A DNA stretch of 63,058 nucleotides, filler included, from Folioceros fuciformis (lineage: Eukaryota): NCBI GenBank assembly GCA_049999805.1. It is 7 parts of 7 records of this genome, joined end to end, with 100 filler letters (N's around TTAATTAATTAA, not from the genome) between each part and the next. Parts side by side here need not be neighbours in the genome. Positions count along the whole stretch, not along the records: positions 53,963 to 60,742 come from JBNGIO010006483.1; 6 more parts are not named here. One strand, 5' to 3'. The position numbers and the translations under genes were made by a program. Each line of letters begins with the position of its first letter. The stretch's first letter is position 1. The notes beneath the pieces are model-generated. The model was not told the DNA's origin and searched no databases. It saw only the letters and a program-made list of their open reading frames with translations. Of the stretch, positions 27,990 to 63,058 are shown piece after piece.

Positions 27990-28168
27990 CTCCCACTTAG
28001 CCGTAGACACAAATTAATGATTAGCAAACATTAAAACTCGCTATGCTTGGGCTACACGGGTTTCTCCACGACTGAACGGATCGGGCAGTGATCACTCCCA
28101 CTCTTCAAGAGTTGCACCTACTCTTCTGATTGTCATTCCTGACTCGTGTGGCTTCAAGGCCGTGAGCG

Positions 28169-42816: not shown

Positions 42817-42829
42817 TGGTATCAGAGCC
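42817..42829 (+). promoter_or_regulatory. Primer binding site, tRNA-iMet type
   Basis: TGGTATCAGAGCC directly after the LTR; also at 17963, 20567, 34752 and 54241. Confidence 0.95.
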
Positions 42830-42870
42830 AGATTAATAGCCGTACCAGCGTCCATGAGTGGTATGATACG

Positions 42871-43296: not shown

Positions 43297-43316
43297 TATT
43301 TGTTTGTCCTAATGTC

Positions 43317-46300
43317 ATGCCGCCTAGGAGAAACCCAAGGGCGGCGACTTCAGATGATGAGTTTGATCTCGACTCTCAAGGTATAATCGAGCCTGACGAG
43401 CCGCCTCATCGCCCATCAGCCGACGACGAAGGACTTCAACAGCACCCTTCTTACCGTGCGGCACCTCAGCGAACTGCTTTTGAATTTGACTTTGGCCACC
43501 CTACACATCCCACCGCTGGGACTGTAGAGGGCAGGGCTCGAGGTGAGCCTGATACCCATCACGGCCGTCAACAACCTCTGGGTCGACATGACCATCAACA
43601 GCTAGGAACGACTTCGACGTCTTCTATGGCTGTTGCCACAACCTCTGCTTCAACCGGGGCTTCTTCATCGGCCATGGCAGCATTACCTCCTTCTACCCTG
43701 AAAATTGAGTTCAGGGACAAGGATCGTTTCAACGGAAACGACTACAACACTTGGTCAATGCGTTTGACACAAATTCTGGAGGAGAATGAACTGATGTCTG
43801 TTGTTGATGGATCTGAACCCATTCCAGCAGTTCAGCCTGCCCATGCTACGGCAGCGACAGCTATTAATGCGGCAGACATTCTGGCCTGGCAGAGGAAAGA
43901 CAGGAGGGCCAGATCTATTCTCATTGCCTCGCTCGACCGGAACATGATGCCACACACACTGGGTGCTAACACTTCTGCAGCTGTTTGGCACAGTTTCAAC
44001 CAAATCTATAAGGACAAAAGCAGTGCATCACAAGTGTATGCACACAGAGATTTTTATGGCATGAGAATGAAGGAAAACGAGACAGTGGAGTCCTACATCA
44101 ATCGTTTTCGAACAGCACGTGCGACGTTGGCCTATTGTGGAACAACCCTAACGGAGCCTCAGGCTGCTACCAGCCTTTTAGCCTCCCTGCCTGACAGCTA
44201 CAGTCACTTCGTAAGCTCACAATTCGCACGGTCTTCTGCAGCAGTGGCTGGAGGACTACCAGGCCTGAGTCTGGAAGAGCTACTAGGTGCCTTACTGGCT
44301 GAGGAACGTACCAAGGGTTTTCACAAGAATAAGCAAGGTACGCACAATAATTCGAGAGTGCTGTTTACCGGTCGAGGCAGAGGCAGTTTTAGAGGACGTG
44401 GGCGTGGAGGACAAGGCCGCGGTAGCAATTCAACGGCGAAACAGCCCAACCTTCAGCGGAAGATTTTCACTTGCAATTGGTGCAAGATCCCAGGACATCT
44501 GGAGAAGGATTGTCGGAAGAAACGTTCTGGTGAACCTAGAAGGGACACGCCTGTTCCTGAATCTAATATTTCCACTTCTAAACCTACATCTGCTAAGTCT
44601 CCCTCTATACTTGCAGTCTGTTTATCTTCCATTCAAATTCAAATTGATATGTGGTTCTTAGATTCAGGGGCCACAAGCCATATTTGTTTTGATAGACATG
44701 CTTTCCACAGTTTTATCCCTTCACCTGATCCTCATCAGTTCGTGTTGCTTGGGGATGACAGTGGACTCTCCATAAAGGGCACCGGTTCAGTCACAGTTCA
44801 GTTACCAGATTCAAGCGTCATGACCCTCACAGGTGTGTTATTTGTCCCAGCCATGACCAAGAATTTGATGTCTGTCATTAAGCTAGCAGAAGAACACTCT
44901 TGCAGGATCTGTTTTGATCACACTGGTTGTTCAATCTCTCGTATACCTGGCTGGGATGATATATTTTCTGGTACTCCCTACAATGATTTGTACTTGTTAA
45001 ATGTTAGGACTTTACCTCAGCATTCTGCCCATGTGAGCCAGTCCATGTCTCTTTCACCTACCCAGCTTTGGCACTGCAGATTAGGCCACGTTAATTTTCA
45101 GCGACTCTCCACTTTAGTAAACAACACAGTTTTTAGAGATCAGTTGTCCTTTCCAATTGATAACCATGCCTTCTGTGACTCCTGCCAAATTAGCAAAGCC
45201 ATTTCACAACCCTTTCGAGATCAGAACCTCTCCAGAGCTGATTCACTGCTGCATACTGTCCACAGCGACATCTGTGGGCCAATGTCTACTGCTTCCTTAG
45301 GCGGTGCCAGTTATTTCCTCACCTTTATTGACGAGTGGAGTCGTTACTGTACTGTTTATCTTCTGCATAGCAAGAGTGATACCTTTTCTTGTTTTCAAGA
45401 ATATTATGCTATGGCACAACGACAGACTGGTTCTAAGCTGAAGATCCTCCGTTCTGACAATGGAGGCGAATATATAAGTCATGCTTTTTCTGACTTCTGC
45501 CAGACGGAGGGAGTGGTACACCAGTTTACTGTGCCATACACTCCTGCTCAGAATTCCTTTGCTGAACGCAAGAACCGCACTCTTCAGGAAGCTACTCTTT
45601 CAAGCCTATCATTTGCTGGACTGACCCGTGGTTACTGGGCTGAAGCCCTTGTTGCAGCCAATTACGTTCAGAATCGTCTTCCCACTAAGGAGCTTGGCCT
45701 CATCACTCCATATGAGCGCTGGACAGGCAAGAAACCACGTATTACTCATCTACGAATTTTTGGCAGCCCTGCATATGCCTTTGTTCCTTCTAAGCTGCGT
45801 AGTAAGTTGGACCCCAAGGCTGTCCGTCGCATTTTTGTTGGCTACGGCGAGGACGTCAAGGGTTACAAACTTTTTGACCCCACTACCCGCCATATCTCTT
45901 ATTCCCGCAGTGTGATATTTCATGAGAATGCACTATTACGTCGACATGACAGCCTTTTGCAGCCCACATCCTTGCCTGTTCCTGCATCCATTCATGGTAT
46001 TGATGACTCTGCTGATTATTCTACTGACCAAGACGCTGACGTCTCTCTTTTTGATTTTGAGGATACACCAGGCATCACACCTTCTTCAGCTTCCGGGGGG
46101 AATGGTATACATTCGCAGCTTTCATCAGATGAGTCACCTGCTTCACCTGTTAGTGAACCTTTAGAAGCTGTTTCTGCTGTTTCTCCTGACTCTGATCTTA
46201 GGTTAGATGCAACAATTACTATTCCTACTCAATCCATTCCAGCTGAGCCTTCTTCTGAATCTGATCCACCTCAACCTGACTCACCTGTCCTGCGTAGATC

Positions 46301-47984
46301 TACTCGTGTTAGACCCCCTCGTCATGCCTGGTCAGAACCCCCTTTTGTGGCTGGCCTAGCTTCCAAGCCTGTTACACCCAACTATGATACTTCAGAACCA
46401 GCCACCTACCTTGAAGCTATCACTGGTCCTGAAGCAGAATTTTGGAAGGAAGCCATAGACTCGGAGTATAACTCCCTTATGGCCAATGGGACATGGAAGC
46501 TTGTCGATCTACCTCAAGGCCGTAAACCAGTCTCCTGCAAGTGGGTGTTTAAGAAGAAGCTCAACACAGATGGGAGCGTAGGCCGATATAAGGCAAGGCT
46601 CGTTGCAAAGGGGTACAGTCAAGTAGCAGGCCTGGATTATAATGAGACATTCGCCCCTGTGGTGAAGTCTACATCCATTAGAATCCTGCTATCTCTGGCT
46701 GCACACTATGGCCTTCACGTTCACCAACTTGATGTGAAGACTGCTTTCCTTAATGGGTCATTGGACGAGGAGATTTATATGACACAGCCTGAAGGATATC
46801 AAGCGGATATGGAGAAAGTTTGCCTTCTGCTCAAGACTTTATATGGTTTAAAACAGTCCAGCAGAGCCTGGAACGAGACATTTCATTCCTTACTAGTTGA
46901 GCTAGGGTTTACATGTTTGGATGCAGATAGCAGTGTTTACATACTTTGGGATGGCGATGACTTTCTAATTCTAACAGTCTATGTCGATGACAATTTTCTT
47001 TTTAGTACCTCTTTGGACCTAATGTCTAGAATTAAGAGTGTTTTGTTGTCACGTTTCGACATGACTGACCTAGGACAACTTAGGTTTTCACTTGGTGTTC
47101 AGTTTCAATTCTCAGATGACAGGCACACAGTGGAGATCCACCAGGAGCACTTTGTTCACCAACTGCTTCAACGTTTCAACATGTTAGAAGCTCGTCCTGT
47201 CACAACTCCCATGTCTACCAGCGAGAAATTGTCTAAGGAGCACTGTCCTACAACACAAGAAGAAAAGGATTTAATGTCAACTCGACCCTACAGGCAGGCA
47301 GTAGGAAGTTTGATTTATTTGGCAGCCTGGACAAGACTGGACATCTCTCGGGCTGTTAGCAATGTATCACAATTTTTGGAGAATCCGGGTGAAGTGCACT
47401 GGGCAGCGGTTAAAAGGATCTTTCGTTATCTTAAGGGAACCCCTAGGCTAGGACTAAAGTACTCTAAGCAGCCTTCAGGGCTTGAGCTGGTTGCCTATTG
47501 CGATGCAGATTGGGCTGGTGACCCGGATAGTAGACGGAGCATCGCTGCCTATTGTAATCTTTTTGGAGGTTCAGCCATTTCCTGGAGCAGCAAGAAACTG
47601 GCCACTGTTTGTCTTTCGTCGACTGAAGCGGAATATGGTGCACTCTCTCAAGCAGCCAGGGAGATCATATGGCTGAGATCATTCCTCAAGGGACTTCAAC
47701 AGCTTGGGGCAGGGCCTACACAACTCTGGTGTGACAATCAGTCGGCAATTGCACTTACCAAAAACCCGGTTTTTCACTCAAGGTCGAAGCATATCGACAT
47801 TTCTCACCACTTTATAAGGCAGGCACATGACACTGGCGAGGTTGAGGTAAAGTACATCTCCACCAGTGATAATGTTGCGGACGTTCTAACAAAAGCTCTG
47901 TCTAAGATGCTCCACACAAAGCATGTCAGTGCTGCAGGTCTGTGCATAGCTTCTCCTTCTAGCAGACTAGGTGCAGCACACTGA
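43317..47984 (+). CDS. Intact copia gag-pol polyprotein, 1555 aa
   Basis: All motifs present: CCHC, DSGA, HHCC, D-D-E, YVDD, DADWA. Confidence 0.97.
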   Translation: MPPRRNPRAATSDDEFDLDSQGIIEPDEPPHRPSADDEGLQQHPSYRAAPQRTAFEFDFGHPTHPTAGTVEGRARGEPDTHHGRQQPLGRHDHQQLGTTSTSSMAVATTSASTGASSSAMAALPPSTLKIEFRDKDRFNGNDYNTWSMRLTQILEENELMSVVDGSEPIPAVQPAHATAATAINAADILAWQRKDRRARSILIASLDRNMMPHTLGANTSAAVWHSFNQIYKDKSSASQVYAHRDFYGMRMKENETVESYINRFRTARATLAYCGTTLTEPQAATSLLASLPDSYSHFVSSQFARSSAAVAGGLPGLSLEELLGALLAEERTKGFHKNKQGTHNNSRVLFTGRGRGSFRGRGRGGQGRGSNSTAKQPNLQRKIFTCNWCKIPGHLEKDCRKKRSGEPRRDTPVPESNISTSKPTSAKSPSILAVCLSSIQIQIDMWFLDSGATSHICFDRHAFHSFIPSPDPHQFVLLGDDSGLSIKGTGSVTVQLPDSSVMTLTGVLFVPAMTKNLMSVIKLAEEHSCRICFDHTGCSISRIPGWDDIFSGTPYNDLYLLNVRTLPQHSAHVSQSMSLSPTQLWHCRLGHVNFQRLSTLVNNTVFRDQLSFPIDNHAFCDSCQISKAISQPFRDQNLSRADSLLHTVHSDICGPMSTASLGGASYFLTFIDEWSRYCTVYLLHSKSDTFSCFQEYYAMAQRQTGSKLKILRSDNGGEYISHAFSDFCQTEGVVHQFTVPYTPAQNSFAERKNRTLQEATLSSLSFAGLTRGYWAEALVAANYVQNRLPTKELGLITPYERWTGKKPRITHLRIFGSPAYAFVPSKLRSKLDPKAVRRIFVGYGEDVKGYKLFDPTTRHISYSRSVIFHENALLRRHDSLLQPTSLPVPASIHGIDDSADYSTDQDADVSLFDFEDTPGITPSSASGGNGIHSQLSSDESPASPVSEPLEAVSAVSPDSDLRLDATITIPTQSIPAEPSSESDPPQPDSPVLRRSTRVRPPRHAWSEPPFVAGLASKPVTPNYDTSEPATYLEAITGPEAEFWKEAIDSEYNSLMANGTWKLVDLPQGRKPVSCKWVFKKKLNTDGSVGRYKARLVAKGYSQVAGLDYNETFAPVVKSTSIRILLSLAAHYGLHVHQLDVKTAFLNGSLDEEIYMTQPEGYQADMEKVCLLLKTLYGLKQSSRAWNETFHSLLVELGFTCLDADSSVYILWDGDDFLILTVYVDDNFLFSTSLDLMSRIKSVLLSRFDMTDLGQLRFSLGVQFQFSDDRHTVEIHQEHFVHQLLQRFNMLEARPVTTPMSTSEKLSKEHCPTTQEEKDLMSTRPYRQAVGSLIYLAAWTRLDISRAVSNVSQFLENPGEVHWAAVKRIFRYLKGTPRLGLKYSKQPSGLELVAYCDADWAGDPDSRRSIAAYCNLFGGSAISWSSKKLATVCLSSTEAEYGALSQAAREIIWLRSFLKGLQQLGAGPTQLWCDNQSAIALTKNPVFHSRSKHIDISHHFIRQAHDTGEVEVKYISTSDNVADVLTKALSKMLHTKHVSAAGLCIASPSSRLGAAH

Positions 47985-48004
47985 ACAGTCAGTCTTATCC
48001 ATGC

Positions 48005-48613
48005 CTATATCGTTACATGATAGCCACCATCTCTTATTTTCTTTTTCAGCGTCTGCATGAGTTCCTCTGTTTTCTAGAGTTCGTCCAGCAGAGCTGTTAT
48101 CATCACAAGCATAGAGGTTAGATAGTTGTAAACAGGCATGGAGGGACAAGTCCGTCAAACAGGATGGCAGGTAGGATGAAGAAGTCACTCACATGTAAGC
48201 TCCTGACCATCCTCACTGGGGTCGTCGTATTTTATTCTTTTTTTTATTTTTTTTCGCTTCTGTTTTTTCCCTTCAGAGGGAGCATTCTCACTCTTGTCAT
48301 AGACTTTGTTCCAGTCTTTCAGTTGCTGCTCCTCTCGCGTCTTAGCTGCATCAAAGTCAGTTGCTGGGTGTTCGCACACCATCCGATGGAGAGTCCACTG
48401 CCTAGCGGAGTATTTAGATGCAGGAATCCATTCCCTACCACAGTGAACACACTCGATGCCTCTTGAGGCATTCTCCCTCCTTGACTTATCCATCAGAATA
48501 CAGCAGTGTTTGCAATCAAGTAGCTTGGTAGCCAGCAGTATGATAAGGAACCAGGCCAGCAGGAGGACAGCGGCGAGGTTACACAGCTCAGATGTGGAAG
48601 TTTGGAGCGCCAT
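48005..48613 (-). CDS. Antisense two-exon gene of A2 (exon 1 48613-48193, intron 48192-48094, exon 2 from 48093; premature TAG at 48074-48076)
   Basis: TM LAAVLLLAWFLIILLATKLL, CKHC, CVHC-x17-H-x3-C. Donor GTGAGT, branch CTAAC, acceptor ACAG. Exon 2 reads SLLDEL*KTEELMQTLKKKIRDGGYH. Confidence 0.72.
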
Positions 48614-48859
48614 GAATTTTAAGGGCGTTGGATTGTAGCAGCAGCGTAAAAGGAACCAGCGCGCGAAAGCTTGCGGGTGGAGCGTAGCAGTTCACGTGGA
48701 GCACGCACAGACCCGGCGAAGGAAATTCTTACTCAAATTTCTATGATGAGTTTCCTTTTTCGTTTGAGTTTTTGGAAACCCGTTTTTGGGTACAAGCTTT
48801 ATAAGAGTTTTTTTTAATTCCCGATATTCTCTCAATTGTTTATATCGACTAAGAGGGAG

Positions 48860-49058
48860 TAAAGGAATAGAACTTTTACCTACTAATAGGTTAAGTTAAT
48901 TACACGTAGTCTCATAAACAGTTATAATAGGTTAGATGAGACTTCTATATACTCTTCTATTTCTGCTGACATAGATAACCGTTTTTACTCTCCTCTCGGC
49001 TGCTCACGCGCTCTTGCCACCCGCACGCTCGTGCCCCTCCGCATCCTGGATTGCATTA
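48860..49058 (+). repeat. 3' LTR of A2 (199 bp, TA...TA)
   Basis: Follows the PPT; ends GCATTA like the 5' LTR. Confidence 0.88.
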
Positions 49059-49679
49059 NNNNNNNNNNNNNNNNNNNNNNNNNNNNNNNNNNNNNNNNNN
49101 NNTTAATTAATTAANNNNNNNNNNNNNNNNNNNNNNNNNNNNNNNNNNNNNNNNNNNNCTGGCGAGGAATCGGGTCTGTGGCTGGTTTCCTGATGTTGGG
49201 CTGTGTCTCTGCAGGCTGCGCGCACTGGAGAGACATTCGAGCTGTAAAGGCTGCAGGTATCCCCTTGCGTGCCTGCTCCAGAGACTGCAGCTCTTTTTCT
49301 CTCGTTTGTGCAAGGTGGTGAAAAGATCGGATCTGCGTCTTGGCTCTTGATCTGTATGTTGGCAAGCCGCAGGCGCCATGGTATGCTGTTGGATCCTAGC
49401 GGTACTGAGGCCAGATGCTTATATCAACGCTGAAGCTTCATCCATCTGGTAAGTCAGTTTTGGTTGCGGGCGGGCATCGTAGCTTGACCACTGATAACCA
49501 GCGATGCCTGGTTGTATCTCGTTGGTTAGGTTTAGCTGATCGGCATAGCCGTGCACCCTCGTGTGACAGGTGAGTGTGGAAGCTGGGCTGTAGGGGCTGC
49601 AGGGGGAATATGCGGCATCAGCTCGGTCAGCCGTCCGCAGGTAGCTTGCTGGTTTCCCCCTCTCATTCACGCAGCCCTT

Positions 49680-52600
49680 TCATGTGTCAATGTGGGCAGA
49701 ATAGTCACTGAGGCCAAGCCCCTGCATATGTAGATAGTGGGGGAGCTTGGGCAAACCCTTTGTAAAAATGTCTGCCGTGTTTGAGTCTGTACTTACGTGA
49801 CTAACCTTGATGATGCCCCTGGATACCAGATCTCGAATATAGTGATGGTGCACTTCGATGTGCTTCGTTCGTGCGTGGAAGGTTGGCTTGGATACAAGCT
49901 CCAGGGCTGAAGTATTGTCACATAAGATAATTGTGGGATCTAGTTGCGGGTGGCCAAGACCTGTAAGGAAACTTCTTTCCCACTCTGCTTCTTTGGCTGC
50001 TTCAGTCAGCGACTTATATTCAGCTTCAGTGGAGCTAAGGGCAATGGTGGTCTGTTTTTTGCTGCTCCAGGTGACTGCTACTGAAGCAAGAAGAAAACAA
50101 TAAGAGGAAATGCTACGCCTGGAGTCTGAATCCGAGGCCCAATCAGCATCTGAGTAACCAGATAAGGTGAGTCATTGGTCCCCACTTCTCCTGTACATGA
50201 GGCCATAGTTTATCGTGCCTTGGAGATAACGAAAAATTCGTTTCACTGTTGTCCAGTGAATTCTCCCGGGACACTCAAGGAATTGGGATACTGTGCTGAC
50301 AGCGTACTGTATATCGGGCCGTGTCCAGTTGGCGACGAACAACAAGCTACCCACTGCGTGCCTATAAGGTACACCCTCCATGTCCTTCAATTCATCTGGG
50401 GTTTGTGGGCTCTGCCGGCGAGTTAATTTGGTGCCAACTGCATATGGAGTCGTGGCAGGTCTTGCCTGGTCTAGATGGAACTTGCGTAGGATTTCAGTTA
50501 TATACTTTCTCTGGTGTATATACATGATCCCAGCATCGCGAACTCGCAGAATTTGAATGCCTAGGCAGTACCTCAACTCTCCAATGTCCTTCATGTCAAA
50601 CCTCTGGTGTAGCTGCTTCTTTACGTCTGCTAACAGTGCATGGTCGTTTGTAGCAAGGATCAAGTCGTCGACGTAGAGAGCAAGGAGCACAGTAGAGGTT
50701 CCTCTCATGAGCATGTATACGTTTGTGTCAGCAGTATTCTAAACGAAGTCAATGCTGATTAGGTAAACATGCATTGTAAGATACCATACCCTGCCGCTTT
50801 GCTTCAGTCCGTAGATACATTTCAATAACCTGAGAACTTGATGCGGGTGTGCAGGGTCTTCGTAGCCTTCGGGCTGAAACATATACAGCTCCTCCTCAAG
50901 GATCCCATACAAGAAGGCAGTGCATACGTCCATTTGCTCGAGGTCAAGGTCAAACTCTGTGGCATAAGCAAGGATGAGGCGAATGGATTGGCTGCGAACT
51001 ACAGGTGAGAATGTTTCCTGGTAGTCCAGCCCTTCCACTTGAGTGAATCCTCGCGCCACAAGTCGTGCTTTGAACCTGGCGACTTCACCTTTGGCATTTA
51101 ATTTTAGTTTGAATGTCCATTTGCAGGATATGGCTTTCCTGCCTGGAGGGAGATCAGTGAGCGTCCAGGTTTTGTTCTTCACCAAGGATTGGTATTCTTC
51201 CTCAACTGCCTGCTTCCATTGCTCACGTTGAGGACCTGTGAATGCCTGAGTTAATGTAGTGGGTTCCTCAGGTAAGGACAAAGCTGGTCCGAGGGAGGGG
51301 ACTGCATGGGTTCGAGAATCAGTGGATGCATAGGGAGGTTCCTTCCATTCAGATGGAGGAGGTCTGTGACATGTGGAACGGTGGGGGAGATCGACATCTG
51401 GGTCAACCTGGGGTGGAGGCTGTGCAGGGTTAGCCAAGGTATGTGTATCATCAGCTAGCCCTACATCCCCCTCTGCGTCCAACACAGGTTGAGCAGGGAT
51501 GGCATCCATGGTGTCTGCATCTATGGTTTCGCCTTCAACATATGCATCTGCGTCTGCCTCAATGTGGTGGGGAAGGTCTAAATTGTGACTTTCTGCAGGC
51601 ACAGGAGGTGGAACCACGGGTTCAGGCTCATCATCATCAAGGGGGAAAACAGCAGGTTGATCAGCCGGAGAGGAAGTTGTAGGGTCCTCTGGTGGGCTGT
51701 GTTCGGAGGCAGGACTATGGAGTTCAACAAAGGTGACGCTCCTAGCAAGAACAATAGTATCAGTGTCTGGGTTATACAGCTTGTAGGCTTTTGAGTGTTC
51801 ACTGTAGCCAACCAGGATAAGTGCCTCAGCGCGGCTGTCTAACTTATGTCTTTTCTCCTTAGGTATATAGGCATAAGCGCGGGATCCAAAGACCCGGAGG
51901 TGGAAGAGGCTGGGCTTCTTGTTCCAAAATACCTCAAATGGGGTTTTGTTTGGGACAGTGCTGGTGAGGACACGGTTGACGATGTACGTCGTTGTCACTA
52001 TAGCCTCCGCCCAATAACCCTGAGGTAAGCCTGCCCATAACAACATGCTTCTTGTCATGGACAGTAAAGCCTGATTTTTCCTTTCTGATACTCCGTTTTA
52101 TTGGGGCGTATAGGGCACTGTTGTCTGGTGCGGTATCCCATGAGACTGCAGCAGGTCTTCAAAGTTGGAGTTAACAAATTAAGTGCCATTGTCTGTCCTA
52201 AAGGTCTTCAAGAGCTGCCCAGACTGTCGCTGAGCAGTGGTAAGCCAATCCTTGAAAAATCCATAAGTGTCACTCTTGAGTTCCATTGGAAATGTCCATG
52301 TGTACCGGCTGTAGTCATCAGTGATAGTGAAGAAGTAGCGGGCACCTCCTAGTGAGGGCTCATGGACCTTGCCTGAGATGTCAGCATGGACTAACTCAAG
52401 GGCTCTTGTGGCTCTCTGTGCAGGTGAGTTAGGGAGTGGCAGCTCCTTTTGCTTGGCTAGTATGCAAGGTTCACACACAGGTAGTTGTTTAAAGCATTTC
52501 GGTAGAGGCTCACGATGGCATCCTAAGACTGACATGTCTATCAACTTGGACTTGTTGATGTGGCCCAAACGGGCGTGCCAAAGCAAGGCCTGCTGTTCTT

Positions 52601-53862
52601 GACTTAGGTTAAAAGATGAGGTTGAGTGAGTAGCCTCATATGAGTAGCCTGTACAGGTAATGTTAAGTCTGTACAGGTTACTTTCGGGCAGACCCTCGAA
52701 AACACATGTGTGGGGAGATGACTGCCTGTAGAAACAGCAGTGTTCAGAGTCTGCATGCATGTAGAACATGCGTTGACGCATGATCTGACTCATAGACATG
52801 AGGTTTTTGGCCATGCTTGGGACATAGATGACATCATCTAGGGTTAACTCTGTGCCATCATGCAGTGTGAAGACACAAGTGCCTCTACCCTGAATAGGTA
52901 AGCTTGACTTACTTTGTTCATCCGCAAGAAATACCTGACCTCCTGTTTGCGTCAGGTCTAGGGTTCTGAAAAGTTCCTTTTTCTTGCAGATGTGAGTGGT
53001 GGCCCCCGAATCAAGATACCAGCAGTTGTCATCACTCTGTGTGCTGAACAGGCATACTGTAAGTATCTTCACGGGGGCCTTGGAGTCTGATTTGCTCTGC
53101 TTCACTGCTACATTTGCTGTAGCCTTTGGCTGACGTTGGGGCTCACCTGCCTTCCGTTTGCGGCATTCTCTTGCCCAGTGGCCAGGGAGGCCACACCAGT
53201 TGCAACTGCCAGGGCGTTTGGCAGCATTGGAGGGTTCTCCCCTCTGTCCTTGTGCTATTCCTCCTCGGAACCTTGACTTGCCTTTGCGGAAATTGGTCAC
53301 TAATGCTTTCTCCCCTCTGTTCTTGGCAGCTGAGGAGAAAGTGCAACTCTGCTCCTCCTGGAACAGTGCACCAATCACCTCCTCCAGGGTGATGGTCACT
53401 GACTGGCCGGAGGCAGCAGCTGCAGCACGTATGGGACCGTTTTGACTTGTCACAAAGGTCTGGTACGAGGCAGGGAGACTGGTCAGGAGCTGGGCGATAG
53501 CGTCCACTTCCGACATCTTCTCTCCTGTCATAGCTGTAAGTTGAGCACGTAGGTGTCTAAACTTGCAGACGTGGGAAGCTACTTTGTCTCCCTCCTTCAT
53601 TTTCAGAGAGTAGAACTCCTGCCTTACTTCGCATAGAGTCATCATGTTCTGAATTTTGTAGGTTTTCTCTAACTGATCCCATATGGCGTGTGCAGATGTG
53701 AGGTATTCCACATCAGGGACAAGGTCTGAGTCCAGTCCACCAATAATCAGCGCGACAGCAATTGCATTGAACTACTCCCATTTGGCAATCTCTTCTGGGG
53801 TTGGTGCTGGGCTGTTGGACGGGTCAGGTTTGAGGTATGTTCCATCTACAGTGGTCCAAACT
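49680..53862 (-). pseudogene. Degenerate copia gag-pol, element C4 (C1 family, in-frame stops)
   Basis: CNWCGLPGHWAREC, YLDSGAT, HADISG, YVDD in ORFs 52179-53711, 50739-52058 and 50172-50714. Confidence 0.93.
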
Positions 53863-53962
53863 NNNNNNNNNNNNNNNNNNNNNNNNNNNNNNNNNNNNNN
53901 NNNNNNTTAATTAATTAANNNNNNNNNNNNNNNNNNNNNNNNNNNNNNNNNNNNNNNNNNNN

Positions 53963-54240
53963 TGTGGAAAATGCGTGAATAGTTAGGTTTAACATTTAAT
54001 AGCCAGACTTAATTATTTATTTATTTATTAGGGCGAAAGTCGGGGTATGAAACGCTGGGAGCGTTTCATAGAGTCATAGTTTTTCATAAGGGTCGCAACC
54101 CTAACCAACAGCCACCACCGAACCGGTGCACGCACTCTCTCTCCTGGCTTAAGGCCACTTTTGGCCACGCCTAATCTTAATCTTGTTTTTTTTCTACTAA
54201 TGATGTGCATGTAATTCGATCCTAGACCACAAATTTGTTA
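53963..54240 (+). repeat. 5' LTR of G (TG...TA)
   Basis: Direct repeat of 60284-60559; abuts the PBS. Confidence 0.95.
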
Positions 54241-54538
54241 TGGTATCAGAGCTTTGTTAAGGCATTGAAGCGGTCCACCGCCTTCTGTCGAGAGCATCAC
54301 ATTTCTGAACAGAACGAGGATGGACATCTTCAAGTGATTAGAAGGAAAAAATGGATCCAGCATCTCCTCCTGGCAGTTGCGCTGTCTGCAAAAGCACAAA
54401 CTGTATTAAAAGCCTGTCGCATGCTCAATTCTGCAGTCTAATTTCTGCATTAGAGCAAGCACTTAGCAGTTTTGGAGAGATGTCGGATGCATTCCTTGCA
54501 GAAGCTGTTGCACACTATTACAGTTAGTGTCTAGCATT

Positions 54539-55153
54539 ATGCCGAGAGCTCGAGGGAAGGGTAAATTACCCGTAGACCCGTTTGCATGCAGTTCTGGCCT
54601 GAGTGTAGAAGCACAACATAAGAACCTTCAACACTTCTTTAACCTGTGTCCCAGACCTGCATCACACAAATATTCTAATCAGAACCAGAGACAGGCTAAT
54701 CCTGATCCCCTAGCGGGTCTTAGGCAGCAAATTTGCAAGGAAATAAATCAATCTCTTGCAATTAGTGCACAAAGAGCAAGAGAAACACCCACCTGTAAAA
54801 TTTGTGCGAGTACATATCCTCCCAAGCCTAATCTAACCCTCCGGGATTTATACAATAGTTTCAGGTCTGAATCAGAGTGGCACAGGCAGCAGGTGTCCGA
54901 TCTGACAGATAGAGTTATAAACTCTCAAAGGCATATAGTGACCCTCACCCGTCAGATAGAATTGCTGGCCAGACACCCTGCATTCAATAAATCTGCCAAG
55001 CAGCCTGACCTGACTAGTTCAGACCCTGAGATAGACGAATCCCAGCCAGTTTCCTTGAGTCATGGGAACGAGAAACCATTTCTTGGTCAACTCATGATAA
55101 GGCATCTTTGTAACCTGGCTCATGTCCAGCAGCAACCGAGGAAGGGGGACTAG
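54539..55153 (+). CDS. ORF0 of G (204 aa; MPRARGKGK, CKIC, coiled-coil), overlapping the gag start
   Basis: Open frame between PBS and gag, overlapping gag by 32 nt in another frame. Confidence 0.62.
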   Translation: MPRARGKGKLPVDPFACSSGLSVEAQHKNLQHFFNLCPRPASHKYSNQNQRQANPDPLAGLRQQICKEINQSLAISAQRARETPTCKICASTYPPKPNLTLRDLYNSFRSESEWHRQQVSDLTDRVINSQRHIVTLTRQIELLARHPAFNKSAKQPDLTSSDPEIDESQPVSLSHGNEKPFLGQLMIRHLCNLAHVQQQPRKGD

Positions 55154-58100
55154 AAATCCAAGAGGCAGGCGTAGAGGTCGTGGAGCAGGAAGGGGAGGAA
55201 ACACAAATCCAGATCCATTCCTAGTTGATCCACTAGGCCTGAACCAAGAGGCTGCCTCCTCCCAGTCAAACACAGGCCCTTCAACTGTATCGGTTGCACA
55301 GCTAGTCGAGGCATACACATTAGCACAAGCGGGCCAATCTCTTGCACATCAAACGGTTGGAAATATGGGAACCAATCAACCACAGACTGTCACAAACAAT
55401 ACAACCACTGTTACAAACTTTAAGATAGACTTCAAGGAAAAGGACAGGTTCAGTGGTACCCAATTTGACATCTGGGCACTCAGAGTTCAGACCATCTTGA
55501 GAGAACACGATCTTTGGGAGATCGTGACGGGCACAGTGCCCAAACCTCCGCAAGGAGCAGCCCAGGCAGACGTAGATAAATGGGCAAAATCAGATCTTCG
55601 AGCTCTAGGCATCATTCAGGCAGCCCTCGATGGGTCGATGATGCATCATACTCAAGATGCTGCAACAACAAAAGATGTGTGGGACTCTCTAAACCAGATC
55701 TACAGAGTGTCAAATGGCTCATCGATGGTGAGTGCTACCCGTGCCTTCTACAATTGCAAGATGAAAGAGCACGAGTCAGTGGAACAGCATGTCATAAAAT
55801 TCAGAATGCTAAGGTCCAAGCTAACCTCTAGCGGGACGACCACGACGGAGATGCAGGCTGCTGTGGCCCTTCTCCTATCTCTGCCTGACAGTTACCGTGT
55901 CTTCGTAAGCAACCACTGCACACACATGAGGAATGTGGCCCAGGCCACACCAGCCGGTGGAACACCTGCAGTTTCCCTCTCAGACTTAATTGGAGCCTTG
56001 CTTGAGGAAGAATCCACAAGGATCGCAAGCAGGGGTGGTACCTCCTCCAGGGGAGAGTCCTCAAATCGAGTTCTCTACACTAACAGAGGCTCAAAGAGAC
56101 AGCCACCACGACAGGGAAAACAGTATCAGAATGCTGGAAGCAGTGGGAGCTTCAATCGTCGACCACCAACTGCAGCTACAAAGAAGAAGGGCACCTGCAA
56201 TTGGTGCCTCATCCTAGGTCACTGGGAGGCAGAATGCAGGAAAAAGAAGGCAGGAGAGCCTCGGAGGACAACTCCACCCGAAGCCAACATGGCATCTAGA
56301 AAGTCCAACACTGTTCTAGCAGTCTACATGGTGTCAACACCGCAATCTAGATATGCGTGGTACCTCGATTCAGGTGCATCGTCGCACATTTGTCATACTA
56401 GATCAGCATTCTCCGAATATAGAAAGGTGCCGAGTGGTCAGGTTGTACTACTTGGTGACGATCGGGGTCTGCCCATCAAAGGAATAGGCAAGGTCCCTGT
56501 CCAGTCCACAACTGGAAGAGTGGAAGTGCTTTTAGAAGTACTGCATGTACCAACCCTGGTCAAGAATCTTGTGTCAGTCTACCTGCTAGACACACAACAC
56601 AAGCTAAGCACCGTTTGTGCCGATGGCAAGTGCCATATAATCGACCAGGCAAACAAATCTGAGTTGTTTGCAATAGGAACACCAGAGCATAACCTGTACA
56701 GGCTGGATCTCGAGTATGGACATGGCAGTCCAGTGGCAAACCTGACACAAGCACAGAAGGACGAACGAGATGTCAGACTGTGGCATGCTCGTTTGGGTCA
56801 TACAAACTTTGATAAGTTAAAACTGATGGCCAAGAGTGACACTCTTTACCGTGAAAAATTCCAACTGAAGTCTGTGGAGAAGCCTTTCTGTGAGGCATGT
56901 GTGTTTGGGAAACACCACCGAGCTCCATACAAGGACAGCAACCCAACACGTGCTACCAAGCTCCTGGAGCTTGTGCATACGGAAATCTGTGGACCCATGT
57001 CCACAATGTCACTCGGAGGAGCTAGGTACTTCTTGTCATTCATAGATGACTGGAGCCGATACACAGTGGTGTATCCCATCAAACAAAAGAGTCAGACACT
57101 TGACTGCTTCATGGAGTTTGTGATGTTTGCACAAAGGCAAACAGGCCAGCTGCTTAAAACCTTGAGGAGTGATAATGGAGGCGAGTACATTTCAGATGCA
57201 TTCGCCAGTTTCTGCAAGGGAGAAGGCATAGCCAGGCAGCTGACAACTCCATATACGTCAGCACAAAATCCCATTGCTGAAATCTCAAACAGGCACACAC
57301 AAGAATCAGCCAAGTCAATGCTTCAGCAGGCACGTCTCTCGAGAGGATACTGGGCTGAAGCAGTATGTACAGCTGTGTACATTAGGAACAGAGTTCCAAC
57401 CAGCGCATTCACTGGTGCAACACCATATGAGCGCTGGACAAATCACAAACCGAGAATCAACCATCTCAGGATTTTCGGTGCAACTGCATATGCTCACCTG
57501 GCGGAGGAACAACGAGTCAAACTCGACTACAAAGCCCGCAAGTACGTCTTTGTAGGTTACCCGGAAGGAATTAAGGGGTACAAACTGATGGACCCCAGTA
57601 CCAGGAGCGTAACACACTGTCGGAGTGTGGTGTTTGATGAGTTGTCACTGCTCGCACCTCAACCTGAGCTCACAGAGCGGATTCCTGCATAAGAGGCCTC
57701 CACAAGCGAGGTGTCAGAAGGAGAAACCAGTGAGGAAACCCTCCAGCACACAACAACTACAACGCAGCATGTGCACATACCTGCTGCAGTTGGAAACTTG
57801 TCAGCAAGTGTTTTCCCAGATGATGAAGAGGGAGAATCATCCTATGACACCCAAACTGAAACACCGGCTGACAATGAAGATGCTGAGGATACAGAGGGTT
57901 CTCATGCAGGCAGTCATCACGAGGCTGCCGAATCACAGACTGAACAAGGGCAGTCTTCTGAAGTGGTGGTGGAGTCAGCTCCAGAACCTGAAGGTCCAAG
58001 ACGGAGCAGCAGGAGACATACTGCCTCACCTGACGAATGGTTTGAACCACCTCTCACATACAGTTCCTTCCTGGTGCAGGATGATAGTGAGCTGGGCAAC

Positions 58101-59690
58101 CTGTACGAGCCACAGTCATACAGAGAAGCAGTTAGTGGACCTGAAGCTGAAAAATGGAATGCAGCAATTGCATCTGAGTACCAGTCTCTATTAGATAATG
58201 GGACATGGGAATTGGTGGACCTACCTGCTGGCAGGAAACCTGTAACCTGCAAGTGGGTATTTAAGAAAAAGCTTGCAGCTGACGGAAGTATAGCAAGATT
58301 TAAAGCTCGACTTGTAGCAAGAGGGTATAGCCAGGTGGAAGGCCTGGACTATACAGAAACCTTCTCACCAGTTGTCAGGGCAACTTCAGTTCGCACCCTG
58401 TTCGCAATTGCAGCACAAAGAGACTACGCCATGGAACACATGGACGTAAAAACTGCATTCTTAAACGGGAACCTGGAGGAAACGATTTTTATGAGTCAGC
58501 CTGAGGGTTTTGTAGATGCTAAGCATCCAGGAAAGGTATGCAGGCTCATAAAAACCATCTATGGACTGAAGCAGTCCCCTCGAGCCTGGTACAAACGCAT
58601 TGATACATACCTCAAACAGTCAGGTTTCCTCCAATCAGAATCGGACTCAAATGTGTACAAGTTGGAGGACAAAGACGGAGTTGTCTTCCTGGCACTCTAT
58701 GTGGATGATGCTGTACTTATTGCGAGTAACCCGAATATAATGACCAAGGTGAAATCTATACTCACCTCTGAGTTCTCCATGACAGACTTGGGGAAACTCA
58801 CATGGTTCCTTGGCATTGAGATCCTGCAAGACATGTCACAACACACCATCCACATACATCAGGCTCAGTACATCAGTCAGGTACTAGCCAGATACAGAAT
58901 GTCAGAGTGCAAACCTGCTGCAACGCCAATGGCTGTTGGAGAAAAATTGAGTGTTGAGCAGGCACCTAAAACAGAAATGGAGAGACGGCAAATGGAAAGC
59001 ATCCCGTACAGGTCAGCAGTGTGCTCGCTCATCTATTGCAGGAACTGGACGAGGCCTGACTTGTCCTACGCAGTGGGAGTAACATCTCAATTCTTGACAT
59101 GCTATGGACAAGCTCATTGGGCAGTAGTGCAGAGAGTGATGAGGTACCTGAAGGGTACGCTGAGGCTTGGACTGCTGTATAGGCAAAGGCCAAAGAACCT
59201 GCTCCTGACATGCTTCTGCGATGCTGACTGGGCAGCAGATGCTGACACACGCAGGTCCATCTCTGCCAATTGCCTTCTACTGGGAGCCCATGAATATGAG
59301 GCCACAGTAGTTTCCTGGCATTCCAAGAAACAGCAAGTTGTGGCCCTATCATCAATAGAGGCAGAGTACGCTGCTACAGCTACTGCTGCCCAAGACATTG
59401 TATATGCAAGGGAGCTGCTCTCCTCACTAGGTGAAAACCAAACTGCACCCACGCTCTTACTGTGTGATAATCAGTCCGCTATAGGATTAGCACAGAATCC
59501 TATCATGCATGCTAGAACTAAACACATAGAAGTGAAGCATCACTTCATTAGACAGGTGCTACTAAATGGGCAGGCTACTTTACAGTATGTGCCTACCAAC
59601 GACAATGTGTCGGACCTGCTAACCAAAGCCTTAGCAAAAGAAAAACACGACAGCTTCTGTAGAGCACTAGGCCTGGTAGTAGGAAAATAG
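55122..59690 (+). CDS. Copia gag-pol with one in-frame TAA (57690-57692)
   Basis: ORFs 55122-57692 and 57711-59690 share a frame. The first integrase Asp reads Glu (HTEICGP). Confidence 0.93.
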
Positions 59691-60192
59691 CACTAAGAAA
59701 CCATCCCACGAGGTCAGCACTTGCAAGGACTTCATGTATACCTTCAGGACTGCAAGCTAGCTGCTCTGAAAGCGGCGAGTTGGCATCTTTGTGGAGCACA
59801 AGTACCAGGGTTCTGCGCAAGGCAGAAAAAGGTCAGGACTTCACCAAAAACAGGAGGAAAACCAGCAGCAAGTACCTTGCAGAAGCCTGTGGCGGCGCAT
59901 CATAGCGAAGAATGAGCCACCCCTCGTCTGTGAAGTCTGATCCGGCGTACAAGAAGCAGTCCATACAATTGGGCAGCATTCTGAAGGACGCATCTGGTGC
60001 TAGCTGAGGAAATCCCTGAAGGCGCTTCCAACGAGCGTACGCGGCCTCCAGTTCAGCCTCAGCAGTGTACAAATTTGCAAACTCAACGCACAAGGAGCAG
60101 GGTCTCCGCCGACGGAGCTCAAGAACAACCAGCACGATGACCAGCAACATCACGCAAGCGACCAAAACCTGGCCATCAGCAGAGGAATCCAT
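59593..60192 (-). CDS. Antisense gene of G (exon 1 60192-59876, 63-nt intron 59875-59813, exon 2 59812-59593; 178 aa)
   Basis: TM VLVACVMLLVIVLVVL-RRRR, CSLC, CMDC. Donor AAG|GTACTT, CTGAC, polypyrimidine tract and GCAG| join two ORF-track ORFs in frame. Confidence 0.6.
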
Positions 60193-60283
60193 GGCGGCGG
60201 CAGTAAGCGCAAGCGAAAACCCTAGCTGCAGATCGAAAACCGGCGAGACATGAAGAATTAACGAAGTTCTGGCTAAGTGGGAG

Positions 60284-60559
60284 TGTGGAAAATGCGTGAA
60301 TAGTTAGGTTTAACATTTAATAGCCAGACTTAATTAATTATTTATTTATTAGGGCGAAAGTCGGGGTATGAAATGCTGGGAGCGTTTCATAGAGTCATAG
60401 CTTTTCATAAGGGTCGCAACCCTAACCAACAGCCACCACCGAACCGGTGCACGCACTCTCTCTCCTGGCTTAAGGCCACTTTTGGCCACGCCTAATCTTA
60501 ATCTTGTCATTTCTACTAATGATGTGCATGTAATTCGATCCTAGACCACAAATTTGTTA
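60284..60559 (+). repeat. 3' LTR of G
   Basis: Follows PPT CTAAGTGGGAG; repeat of the 5' LTR. Confidence 0.95.
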
Positions 60560-60706
60560 TAAACAAGACTCAAGGTAGTTCTGCTCATATAGGTCTAGCA
60601 CGGTTTCTATAGGTACATACTGCCTAGGGACTTGTCTTTCACGACAATCCCTCTTGTTAGCACCTATATGACGTGCATTCCTAGTAGACACTCCCTGCCT
60701 AGGCAT
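60560..60706 (-). pseudogene. N-terminus of ORF0 of a C1-like element, interrupted by element G
   Basis: MPRQG...PRQYVPIETVLDLYEQ resembles C1 ORF0. The upstream sequence resembles the post-PBS leader of C1. Confidence 0.55.
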
Positions 60707-60944
60707 TTTGCATGGATAATGCTGAGATACAGAGCACAAGCTNNNNNNNNNNNNNNNNNNNNNNNNNNNNNNNNNNNNNNNNNNNNTTAATTAATTAANN
60801 NNNNNNNNNNNNNNNNNNNNNNNNNNNNNNNNNNNNNNNNNNTATGGGCTCTGAATGTCCATAATCTCTGGATGCCTGATCTGCCAATGTCTATGATGCT
60901 GCGCATCGCGTGCGCGCTGTTTGCTTCTCCTACTAACTTGAAAA

Positions 60945-61690
60945 ATGCCTAGAAGACGGAGAGCTGCACGGTGCATGGCCCCTCCCATTTTGCACCTGCC
61001 AAGGGAACAATCCCATAACAATTCTCACAGGAATTGAGCGCCTCCATAGCGTGATCAAGGGAGGGTCACTACCCATCGAAATTGGGTATCCCATGCTAGG
61101 GAACAGGGCACGACAAGTCTCTCTGAAATTCTTAGTGAAAGGAGACAATTTCTACGTTGGGAGAATCCTAACAACAAAATTGCAGCATGGGAACAACACG
61201 GCCTTACCTTGCCCAGGCAAGGAGATGTGCCTCCCTATATCAATCCCAGAGCAATGGTTCATTGCTTCAATGAGATCAGTGAAAGGATCGATGCTGTAAT
61301 CTGTATGCTTGAGAGCCTGCAGCAACCGAGAGAGGAAACCCTAAATGTTCGGAGGCCACAGACGCCTCCACCACCCAAAAATTGGAACGATAAAACTTGA
61401 ACGTTGCATCGTTTGGAGCCACGAGACATACCTGCCAGAGAAGGTCATGTCTGTTGGTGATGAATTGGCTTCATGTGAAGCTTGATAACCATGCAAGCTA
61501 CTAAATAACCAACCAAGTGGTGCCAAAATACCTAGAAGGTTGTTGCTATAGCTGGTGTTGTAAGGATCATAATTCTCACTGTCCACCTACAAGCACAATA
61601 GGGCAGGTATTAACACACTTCTTCCGCTGCAATGGCAACTAACACAGCCAACATATCAGGAGTCGATTACAGAGATCGATTCAATGGAAA
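60945..61690 (+). pseudogene. 5' remnant of copia element H: degenerate ORF0 (60945-61400) and gag start (ATG 61632)
   Basis: 152-codon frame starting MPRRRRAAR with two stops (TGA, TAG), then MATNTANISGVDYRDRFNG matching the gag KDRFNG motif. Confidence 0.55.
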
Positions 61691-62271
61691 GGAACAACCC
61701 GTTTGCTTTTGAAATTTTCCTTGCCTTCACCAACTTGAGCTTGCCGTTATCAATATCAGCCTACCCAAATCTATGGTTCCTAGAAGGATTAAAATGAGTA
61801 CACTTCTCCCTAAGCTTCGGTACGGCATATCATAGCGACATCGACTTCGAGGCCTTCCCTAGTTGATGGTTGTCCGCTTTGGGGCCTTCCCTTGTTCGCT
61901 CCAAGGCCTTGCCCAAAGCAGTCAATTTCCACTTAGATTGTTCTAGCAACAAGCCAATTTTATTGTTAACAAAGCCGGCTCCCCAAGCCCCCTGTGAACA
62001 AGGGACGATTCCCCAGGTATGGGGTGAAACCACAAAGGAGAAGTACACTAAACTATCTTTTATAGATATAGAATTTAGGAACAATGCTCCAAGCATAATG
62101 ATAATCCATGCCCATGCGGGAAGTACTTATGCTAAAAAACCCATCCATCCAGCTCTTAATCCACCTATCGAAAATCTTTGCCTGAATACATTGTAACAAA
62201 CAATTTTATTTTTTTAGATTATATTCTATAGTTATTTTGAAAAATTTGCAAACAAACACCCACCCAATCCA

Positions 62272-62320
62272 ATGTGCCATGTGCCATGTGCCATGTGCCA
62301 TGTGCCATGTGCCATGTGCT
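62272..62320. repeat. Heptamer microsatellite (ATGTGCC)x7
   Basis: Read directly from the sequence. Confidence 0.95.
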
Positions 62321-63058
62321 GGTTGGTGCACTTAAGAATATGCGTACCTTTTCTTTGCACCACTCAATTCAGAAATAAAAAGGAAGTCATCTTCCAATGT
62401 CATGAAACACAAGTTGGAACTTTGTAATATTTTTGGCAGTTGAATATTTTGGATATTCTATTTCTACTTCAGCAAAAGAAAAGAAGTGCAACCGAGTCCA
62501 ATCCGAAACTAAACGTTGTTTCAATAACATTTAACTTCTTCGCCTGCCTTCGTTATCCACATCTTCATAGTACTCACATTTAGCTCTCTCTGGCTAGACA
62601 ACTTCTTTTAGTGCTGATAGCATTATTTTATATGCTTGCCTTGCCTACATCACTTGGTGGCAAATAGATTGAGACGGTTCGACCCAAAGTGGCGGCTGTT
62701 TACTAAGATAGTGTTAATGGCACAACGAATTTCTGCATTTCCTACGGAAGTTTTGTGCAAGGCATACGAATACCACGGAGAACCTCAGCACCTACCTAGT
62801 GCATCTCTGGGCAGGGCAAGGGCAGACTGCAGTAATTGAACTGAATTGCAGTAATTGAATCCGTTCGGTGTCCTCATAAAGCGAGTCCCGTTAACACACG
62901 TGGTCGAACGAAACGAACAAGAACAAGAACAAAAACTCAAGAGAACTCAAGAGATCAGCAGGTGATAAGGAAGCAAATATTTGAGTTGGGTACATATGGG
63001 ATATATGTATACCCACCTAGCTTAGCCACCTGTACGGCCTTCCTTCATGTCAATCAAT

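Follow-up and report, generated by a model that had tools for sequence, protein, structure and literature searches.

Ty1/copia retrotransposons in a 63,058-base stretch of the Folioceros fuciformis assembly GCA_049999805.1 (the whole of which we call the window) carry a recurring three-gene layout: a sense open reading frame (ORF) between the primer-binding site (PBS) and gag, here termed ORF0; a gag-pol; and, on the opposite strand between pol and the polypurine tract (PPT), a small antisense ORF with a hydrophobic start. The layout exceeds chance expectation, is restricted to a single clade among the copia loci examined and, in the family formed by elements A1 and A2, includes an antisense ORF under purifying selection. 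We favour the reading that these elements are a monophyletic Ty1/copia group with three genes, namely ORF0, gag-pol and an antisense membrane-protein gene, and give this accessory-gene picture as a whole a probability of about 0.65; we are more confident than this about the antisense gene of family A, and less so about ORF0 or any specific function. An initial annotation of the window had proposed both the layout and its interpretation as a clade organised like a complex retrovirus. The observation is confirmed and that first interpretation is partly supported, with the retroviral comparison serving as an analogy only.

Element G (53963-60559) had been put forward as displaying the full layout between paired long terminal repeats (LTRs), and all of its parts can be read. 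The 278-bp 5' LTR (53963-54240, plus strand) and the 276-bp 3' LTR (60284-60559, plus strand) are 97.5% identical over 279 aligned positions (98% over 229 in another comparison); the contig starts at the first base of the 5' LTR, so that a target-site duplication is not readable. A 12-nucleotide (nt) PBS of tRNA-Met type, TGGTATCAGAGC (54241-54252, plus strand), directly follows the 5' LTR, and the PPT TAAGTGGGAG (60274-60283, plus strand) abuts the 3' LTR, giving G the paired LTRs, PBS and PPT of a Ty1/copia element. ORF0 (54539-55153, plus strand, 204 amino acids (aa)) starts with MPR and overlaps the start of gag by 32 nt in another frame. Upstream of it lies a 58-aa ORF (54351-54527, plus strand) of doubtful status, which matches no Pfam family and has no counterpart seen in the other families. 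The gag-pol (55122-59690, plus strand) encodes gag, a protease-like barrel, integrase, reverse transcriptase (RT) and RNase H; first read as frameshifted, it instead runs in one frame with a single in-frame TAA at 57690-57692. Pfam places Retrotran_gag_2 (residues 123-301; 1.2e-29), Pol_BBD (413-491) and rve (628-712) in the first part and RVT_2 (1.6e-77) in the second, and also detects gag_pre-integrs and SH3_retrovirus. Integrase thus precedes RT, which is the order of Ty1/copia elements (Pseudoviridae), and the order is identical in A2 and C1. On the opposite strand, the antisense ORF (60192-59833, minus strand, 119 aa) has its ATG 91 nt inside the 3' LTR boundary and encodes a 7-residue acidic N-terminus, a hydrophobic helix at about residues 8-25 and then four arginines.

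The same arrangement recurs across the window. An antisense ORF with a hydrophobic start had been claimed for every element with a readable 3' region, and it is indeed found, as an ATG-started ORF, in six of the six pol-verified elements in which a pol-PPT spacer is present (A1, A2, C1, G, E6 and E5); the generalization fails for E2. Across the six, the ATG lies 91-246 nt inside the LTR boundary and the N-terminal hydrophobicity, taken as the best N-terminal 19-residue Kyte-Doolittle score, ranges from 1.76 to 2.94. The ORF is intact in four of them (A1, A2, C1 and G). ORF0, which had likewise been claimed for several elements, is present in A1, A2, C1 and G at 111-205 aa and as a start-less remnant in E2, while the labels C3, F, E and H of the initial annotation cannot be mapped onto elements with certainty. 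Beyond G, A2 and C1 keep the whole layout intact and A1 very nearly so; in two further elements it has decayed.

These elements belong together. Every pol-bearing piece of the window is Ty1/copia by Pfam and tblastn, and a tblastn search with the intact A2 polyprotein as query delimits nine pol-bearing regions. In a maximum likelihood tree of the RT-RNase H (RT-RH) region, the eight window elements included form one clade (Shimodaira-Hasegawa-like approximate likelihood ratio test, SH-aLRT, 97) apart from 80 metagenomic copia relatives, as the proposal of a copia clade had anticipated; the tree is a quick one from a short search, with rows projected onto G coordinates, and comprises window elements and control loci only, without named reference lineages. 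The branching order is E2, (A1,A2), G, (E6,(C1,E8,E5)), with E2 basal. RT-RH identity between families is only about 52%, and the layout recurs across distinct copia families, as had been stated. Five exact copies of the PBS TGGTATCAGAGC occur in the window, where 0.21 would be expected, and each adjoins an LTR or a leader; TAAGNGGGAG has four exact matches there, every one directly beside the start of an LTR or a contig end that falls on an LTR boundary. The PPT core TAAG[A/T]GGGAG (11663-11672, 27990-27999, 48850-48859 and 60274-60283) and the 12-nt PBS are common to families at that level of divergence. The LTRs are unusually short, at about 200-280 bp, and end in ...TTA or ...ATA, not in the canonical CA.

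Comparison with shuffled sequence and with other copia elements sets the layout apart from random ORFs. Dinucleotide shuffles of the pol-PPT spacer, 2,000 per sequence, reached the observed antisense length 45 times in G, once in A2, never in A1, 16 times in C1 and 403 times in E6; length and N-terminal hydrophobicity were reached together in 0 of 2,000 for each of G, A2, A1 and C1 and in 4 of 2,000 for E6. Shuffles of the leader reached the ORF0 length in 0 of 2,000 (G), 0 of 2,000 (A2), 1 of 2,000 (C1) and 13 of 2,000 (A1, where the leader is truncated), so the excess over shuffled untranslated regions on which the initial interpretation hinged is borne out. Only four of the 41 ATG-started ORFs of at least 100 aa in the window have a hydrophobicity of at least 2.3, and they are the four intact antisense ORFs, a coincidence expected by chance once in 101,270 (once in 9,880 with A1 and A2 counted as one). 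Likewise, the only four of the 183 window ORFs of at least 50 aa to start with MP[RK] are the four ORF0s. The 80 metagenomic copia loci, whose identity to the RT-RH query is 37-46%, served as an outside control; 52 of them have at least 1,000 nt after the pol stop. An antisense ORF of at least 100 aa occurs within 1,500 nt in 8 of the 52, and some of these resemble neighbouring genes or other copia fragments, judged by their first residues; none of the 52 combines such an ORF with a hydrophobic start, and one does at a threshold of at least 60 aa. An upstream sense ORF longer than 66 aa is found in none of the six control loci with an intact polyprotein and 1,000 nt upstream.

A1 and A2 are the only pair of elements close enough to compare codon by codon; their RT-RH proteins are 87% identical, with silent sites saturated (proportion of synonymous differences, pS, 0.80). 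The two antisense proteins are 50% identical (E 7e-40), with a proportion of nonsynonymous differences (pN) of 0.32 against a pS of 0.73. When the first 104 codons are aligned as DNA irrespective of frame, the three codon positions differ at 18 of 99, 22 of 99 and 51 of 100 sites (chi-square p 3e-7). The antisense frame alone is free of stops in both copies, the remaining five frames holding 1-10 stops. This is good evidence, drawn from sequence comparison, that the A-family antisense ORF is probably a translated, constrained gene under protein-level purifying selection. Elsewhere in the clade, the C-terminal half of the C1 antisense protein is related to a 132-aa ORF in E5 (E 5e-7).

The antisense proteins share an architecture, with a short neutral or acidic N-terminus followed by one hydrophobic helix and, in five of seven, by basic residues directly after it. 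The product is thus predicted to be a single-pass membrane protein, and by the positive-inside rule the basic residues suggest a cytosolic C-terminal domain and an N-terminus facing outward or into the lumen. AlphaFold2 (AF2) models of the A2 and G antisense proteins have mean predicted local distance difference test (pLDDT) scores of 54 and 59, respectively; the N-terminal helix is the most confident part of both, reaching 72-78 in G, where the remainder is low. The part conserved between A1 and A2 consists of the membrane helix and a stretch bearing Cys and His residues, which AF2 draws after the A2 membrane helix, at low confidence, as a beta-hairpin and a helix; this is only a hint of what may be a zinc-finger-like unit. 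The antisense ATG is followed by G in six of seven cases. A TATAAA box upstream of the antisense ATG occurs only in A1 and A2, which share two, 190-231 nt upstream, and none is present in the other families. On the sense strand of the spacers, the longest ORFs measure 38 aa in G, 77 in C1, 78 in A1 and 100 in A2. Those at 48164-48466 in A2 and 5289-5525 in A1 start just after the pol stop, with the first dozen residues alike and the rest fully divergent, and they lie opposite the conserved C-terminus of the antisense ORF; we read them as a by-product.

Beyond the window, G-like copies were found in public sequencing runs of three organisms. Among the variants listed for the G-like contigs (40 of 1,968 substitutions and 12 of 67 indels), the five listed indels of a contig 87% alike to G all fall at 59704-59858, with none in the 304 nt of the antisense ORF body at 59859-60162 (p ~0.013). 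No RNA run is listed as containing the element; the one run guessed to be RNA yielded three contigs, all less than 90% alike and all in gag or integrase. Both of the two contigs from run X1 carry one extra T in the T-run after 55054 relative to the window, which would end ORF0 of G near 55113, about 9 nt before the gag ATG, without overlap. The extra T, which alters the final codons of ORF0, reflects either a difference between copies or a homopolymer error in one of the assemblies.

Outside the elements themselves, searches for relatives came back empty. Searches with the antisense protein and ORF0 of G, the antisense protein of A1 and ORF0 of C1 found no homologue of any accessory protein among 5.8 billion clustered or 1.84 billion representative proteins, the A1 antisense protein having 0 matches among the 1.84 billion representatives. 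With E limits of 0.01 or 0.1, the antisense proteins have no match in Pfam, apart from a sub-threshold hit of C1 to SHR3_chaperone (E 0.054), and ORF0 of G has no Pfam family and no homologue in the collections searched. In the ESM Atlas, the A2 and G antisense proteins gave a best score of 0.86 or no usable match, and a scan of viral contigs returned no relative. No sequence relation is detectable among families A, C and G for either the antisense proteins or the ORF0s, and an A-family profile compared with G and C1 in hhalign gives a probability of less than 1%. The initial statement that the accessory proteins are unrelated between families while keeping position, orientation and a hydrophobic N-terminus thus holds up.

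A number of observations weigh against the accessory-gene picture. The basal element E2 has neither spacer nor antisense ORF: a PPT-like motif (6431-6422) follows its pol stop (6443-6445) by 11 nt. The antisense length in G is only modestly unusual (the 45 of 2,000 shuffles given above) because its strand is poor in A (16% A), and the G ORF rests on one copy; its evidence is weaker than that for family A. Two of the five listed indels in the 87%-alike contig hit the last 8 codons of the G antisense ORF, and of the two listed substitutions within it one is silent, at Leu10, and the other changes Cys79 to Arg. In E5 the helix is followed by acidic, not basic, residues. A motif scan found a canonical poly(A) signal within 500 nt after the antisense stop in none of four cases. 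Both extra ORFs are known here from sequence, and their expression and function are putative. Given that no accessory protein has a homologue or a Pfam family in the collections searched, the case for common descent between families comes solely from position and architecture. The contigs are short and repeat-derived and could be collapsed copies. As to ORF0, the A1 and A2 copies show no codon periodicity (36 of 111, 37 of 111 and 42 of 110 differences by position), many of the gaps between them are not multiples of three, and the A-family gag itself starts Met-Pro-Pro-Arg-Arg, much as ORF0 does, which means that some ORF0s may be detached gag leaders.

This last point bears on the identity of ORF0, for which the evidence is weaker than for the A-family antisense gene. 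The A1 and A2 ORF0s are 32% identical (E 9e-14), with pN 0.44 against pS 0.72. It is possible, if doubtful, that ORF0 is not an independent gene: it might be an N-terminal leader of Gag, detached or alternative, or else a long upstream ORF with a regulatory role, throttling the translation of gag-pol. The RNP-type basic starts MPRSRNPN in the C1 ORF0 and PRNPN in the E2 leader resemble the gag start MPPRR of A1 and A2 and the RG-rich N-terminus of Gag in G; in A1 and A2 a distance of 20-22 nt separates the ORF0 stop from the gag ATG, and in G the two genes overlap or nearly abut; G, C1 and A2 have small ATG-started frames ahead of ORF0; and the missing periodicity just described fits as well. 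Such an explanation has to contend with a frame offset between ORF0 and gag that varies (+1 in A1 and G, -1 in A2), with the 423-nt gap between the two in C1, with a Pro codon after the ATG that varies at its third base (G, A or T) while the residue is kept and, as weak evidence, with the lack of fused relatives when the C1 ORF0 was compared with longer proteins. A conserved programmed frameshift between ORF0 and gag was considered and rejected, as the three offsets differ. An RG-rich basic N-terminus is found on Gag in G (55122-55200) and on ORF0 in C1 (17860-17929), and a PRNPN-type motif both in the leader frame of E2 and where gag begins in A1 and A2; it seems that, as the clade evolved, a basic leader module has shifted between ORF0 and gag.

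For the antisense ORF, a quite unlikely alternative is that function resides in an antisense RNA, or in a cis-acting RNA or DNA element near the PPT, serving for example copy-number control or small interfering RNA (siRNA) production, with the ORFs as untranslated passengers. Antisense promoters without known proteins are described for the copia elements AtRE1 and Mdoryco1-1 and for micropia in the accessible text of PMC7264820, the protein sequences are not conserved between families, and the ORFs are, as noted, sequence predictions. Constraint at the RNA level, however, predicts neither the third-position excess nor the one open frame of six in A1 and A2, nor that all families should have a hydrophobic helix in the same position. 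The lack of sequence relation between the A, C and G proteins also fits a history in which each family independently transduced unrelated host gene fragments into its spacer and leader, and the REXdb authors, in the text available, read heterogeneous extra ORFs as possibly derived from multiple sources (PMC6317226). We regard such captures as very unlikely, since the families of this one clade all agree in orientation, distance from the PPT, size class and N-terminal membrane helix, the MP[RK] start is common to all ORF0s, and the databases searched hold no host or other homologue. That chance and composition alone produced the layout, through an A-poor and T-rich antisense strand with few stops and many hydrophobic codons and a random ORF in the leader, is the least probable explanation of all: it draws on the 16% A and 30.5% T of the G antisense strand, the frequency with which shuffles reach the G and E6 lengths and the absence of database relatives, and it founders on shuffles that never match length and hydrophobic start together in G, A2, A1 and C1, on the codon periodicity and single open frame of A1 and A2 at saturated silent divergence, on the control loci and on the 24-31% A of the A2, A1 and C1 antisense strands.

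Under the favoured accessory-gene picture, an element would carry an ORF0 between PBS and gag that starts Met-Pro-Arg/Lys, is rich in basic residues and has a helical tail, then an ordinary single-ORF gag-pol, and then a small gene on the opposite strand of the pol-PPT spacer. The A, G, C and E6 families would have inherited that gene from their common ancestor, the gene having arisen once after E2 split off, and it would since have diverged fast, beyond recognition except for its membrane anchor. Its promoter may lie in the internal region, at the end nearest the PPT, or else in the 3' LTR, and its product may be a membrane-acting accessory factor that tethers or regulates a step of retrotransposition. 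ORF0 would be translated from the genomic RNA, with gag-pol following by reinitiation or leaky scanning. A more ambitious version, which we consider unlikely, would make the antisense gene an ancient, fast-evolving accessory gene that defines a non-seed-plant copia clade and encodes, read from the 3' end, a small single-pass membrane protein with a cytosolic tail. By analogy with viroporin-type and small hydrophobic movement proteins known from plant viruses and complex retroviruses, this protein might, for instance, bring virus-like particles (VLPs) to membranes or plasmodesmata, or blunt host silencing; ORF0 would then be an RNA-binding protein coupled to gag translation by termination-reinitiation, and no copia elements before these would have counted as 'complex'.

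In structure, complex retroviruses differ from simple retrotransposons chiefly by their extra genes, and several known systems invite comparison. HIV-1 Vpu, encoded in sense, is a small protein in which a short N-terminus leads into a single N-terminal membrane helix, followed by a cytoplasmic tail; HBZ of HTLV-1 is a nuclear bZIP protein, not a membrane protein. Both offer a functional analogy only to the antisense ORF, with no sequence relation or demonstrated structural relation. Among retrotransposons, the Ty3/gypsy element Ogre has a sense 5' extra ORF, ORF1, and the copia-like element Osser of Volvox reportedly (Lindauer et al. 1993) carries a second ORF, of opposite polarity, between ORF1 and the 3' LTR. 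The PBS of Bryco/Osser elements, in the text available, is complementary to a half-molecule of tRNA-Met (PMC6317226), unlike the full 12-nt TGGTATCAGAGC found directly after the LTR here. HBZ is read antisense from the 3' end of the provirus, according to the accessible part of PMC7264820.

The closest parallels are the antisense ORFs between pol and the 3' LTR (aORF-3R) of Ty3/gypsy elements, which the available texts describe in Grande (gene23, maize), RIRE2 (rice), Retand (Silene, TRP28) and pvRetro13 (ORF2, Phaseolus); the Grande ORF is driven by its own upstream promoter (PMC7264820, PMC11963269, PMC4093653). As in those lineages, so far as the texts go, the extra ORF described here lies between pol and the 3' LTR in antisense, recurs in the lineage (in six of six readable spacers; aORF-3Rs are kept in most copies) and has no assigned function. 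The aORF-3R elements so described are Ty3/gypsy of Tat/Retand type, with spacers of 2.9-6.6 kb and ORFs mostly longer than 200 aa, many of them TRP28 (PF04195) or SMC proteins or nuclear or DNA-binding ones; here, in contrast, the backbone is Ty1/copia, the spacer measures 0.6-1.1 kb, and the proteins, 119-214 aa long, carry a membrane helix at the N-terminus and match no Pfam domain. Sireviruses share with the present elements a copia backbone and a fast-diverging ORF after pol that is often transmembrane (PMC6317226, PMC7264820, in the parts available), and an extra ORF of this kind, eORF-3'F, is given for 74% of SIRE elements (PMC6317226, accessible text). The SIRE ORF is, however, in sense and hundreds of residues long, in elements with LTRs of more than 1 kb, whereas the ORF here is antisense and small, the LTRs are short, and the sense spacer ORFs stay at the 38-100 aa already given. 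On the 5' side, rice Retrosat2, a gypsy element, has a sense ORF0 between 5' LTR and gag with no relatives outside its family, according to the available text (PMC3485330, PMC4093653). Retrosat2 and Ogre are single gypsy families with very long LTRs, in contrast to the several copia families, 111-205-aa products and MP[RK] start of the ORF0s described here.

So far as the texts available go, then, antisense extra ORFs are known in plant Ty3/gypsy elements, the only extra ORF documented in copia is the sense envelope-like (env-like) ORF of SIRE, and the layout is new for copia but not as a category. In common bean, 63 of 65 copia families have a polyprotein ORF only and the other two a sense env-like ORF, according to the accessible text (PMC4093653). 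REXdb treats extra ORFs in copia as a sense feature of SIRE and, in the part available, searched only ORFs of at least 250 codons (PMC6317226), a cut-off by which genes of 110-210 codons would be missed systematically. Our literature search found no published copia lineage with a small antisense membrane-protein gene or ORF0, in keeping with the initial expectation that the lineage had not been described; supplements and subscription papers lay outside that search, and small ORFs of copia elements may be listed in REXdb Additional files 1, 4 and 5. If the accessory-gene picture is right, the elements, at 6.6 kb and with LTRs of 200-280 bp, would provide a compact system in which to study the roles of accessory genes kept across families about 50% diverged, and would suggest that the annotation of plant retrotransposons under-represents small accessory ORFs.

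The two other complete elements are A2 (42770-49058) and C1 (minus strand, ~18186-11663), each with PBS, ORF0, intact gag-pol, antisense ORF and PPT. In A2, the PBS lies at 42817-42828 (plus strand), ORF0 (42871-43296, plus strand, 141 aa) stops 20 nt before the gag ATG, and the gag-pol (43317-47984, plus strand) is intact at 1,555 aa; the antisense ORF (48185-48613, minus strand, 142 aa) has its ATG 246 nt inside the LTR boundary, followed by the PPT (48850-48859, plus strand) and the 3' LTR (48860-49058). In C1, the 5' LTR (~18186-17976, minus strand) is followed by the PBS (17975-17964), ORF0 (17312-17929, minus strand, 205 aa), an intact gag-pol (12455-16888, minus strand, 1,477 aa), the antisense ORF (11774-12223, plus strand, 149 aa), with its ATG 111 nt inside the LTR boundary, and the PPT (11672-11663, minus strand), right after which the contig ends. 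C1 is nested, its 5' LTR (TGTGAG...) beginning inside the integrase region of the minus-strand copia fragment E4 (window 17976-18340). E4 itself (19758-18337, minus strand) is a gag-protease-integrase fragment with its own PBS at 20578-20567.

A1 has a frameshifted gag-pol with the gag ATG at 370, preceded by ORF0 (12-347, plus strand, 111 aa) in a truncated leader; its antisense ORF (5298-5942, minus strand, 214 aa) has the ATG 242 nt inside the LTR boundary, and a PPT-like motif (6175-6184) precedes a 3' LTR of ~207 bp (~6185-6391). The end of this LTR lies about 30 nt inside the apparent 3' LTR of the minus-strand element E2 (window 6185-6445), and A1 appears to have inserted into E2. The E2 leader frame (10926-11504, minus strand) is open for 192 codons without a start codon, contains PRNPN and is the ORF0 remnant mentioned above. 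In E6, whose LTRs (27831-27986 and 34766-34920) are 88% alike, a PPT (27999-27990) is accompanied by a short antisense ORF (28169-28381, plus strand, 70 aa) with a moderately hydrophobic start and its ATG 179-182 nt inside the boundary. The antisense gene of E5 (25001-25508, minus strand) is decayed: a 56-aa ORF with a hydrophobic start (25508-25338), its ATG 163 nt inside the boundary, is split by a frameshift from the second part, the 132-aa ORF (25399-25001) in another frame, and a PPT-like motif lies at 25662-25671. The contig of E8 ends before any PPT, so that its 3' region is not readable, and no similarity to the C1 antisense protein was detected there. A further candidate (21299-22235), with a PPT-like motif, a hydrophobic-start ORF and a 176-aa ORF, is not attributable to a pol.

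The window is not a single locus: it joins seven separate contigs, at 1-11561, 11662-22235, 22336-42669, 42770-49058, 49159-53862, 53963-60742 and 60843-63058. The joints (N44-TTAATTAATTAA-N44) occupy 11562-11661, 22236-22335, 42670-42769, 49059-49158, 53863-53962 and 60743-60842; adjacency across them is meaningless, ORFs running into them are artefacts, and the window holds three 100-N gaps besides. An LTR boundary is the exact start or end of several pieces, as is expected when short assemblies break at repeats. A plus-strand ORF at 20822-21100, in a mosaic between the E4 PBS and the PPT-like motif near 21299, has a CCHC zinc-knuckle-like motif and is a gag fragment of yet another retroelement. 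At 26677-27400 lies a degenerate fragment of a pentatricopeptide repeat (PPR) gene, with a 61-aa frame matching PPR_2 (E 2.2e-10) and stop-rich neighbouring frames, which suggests a land-plant host.

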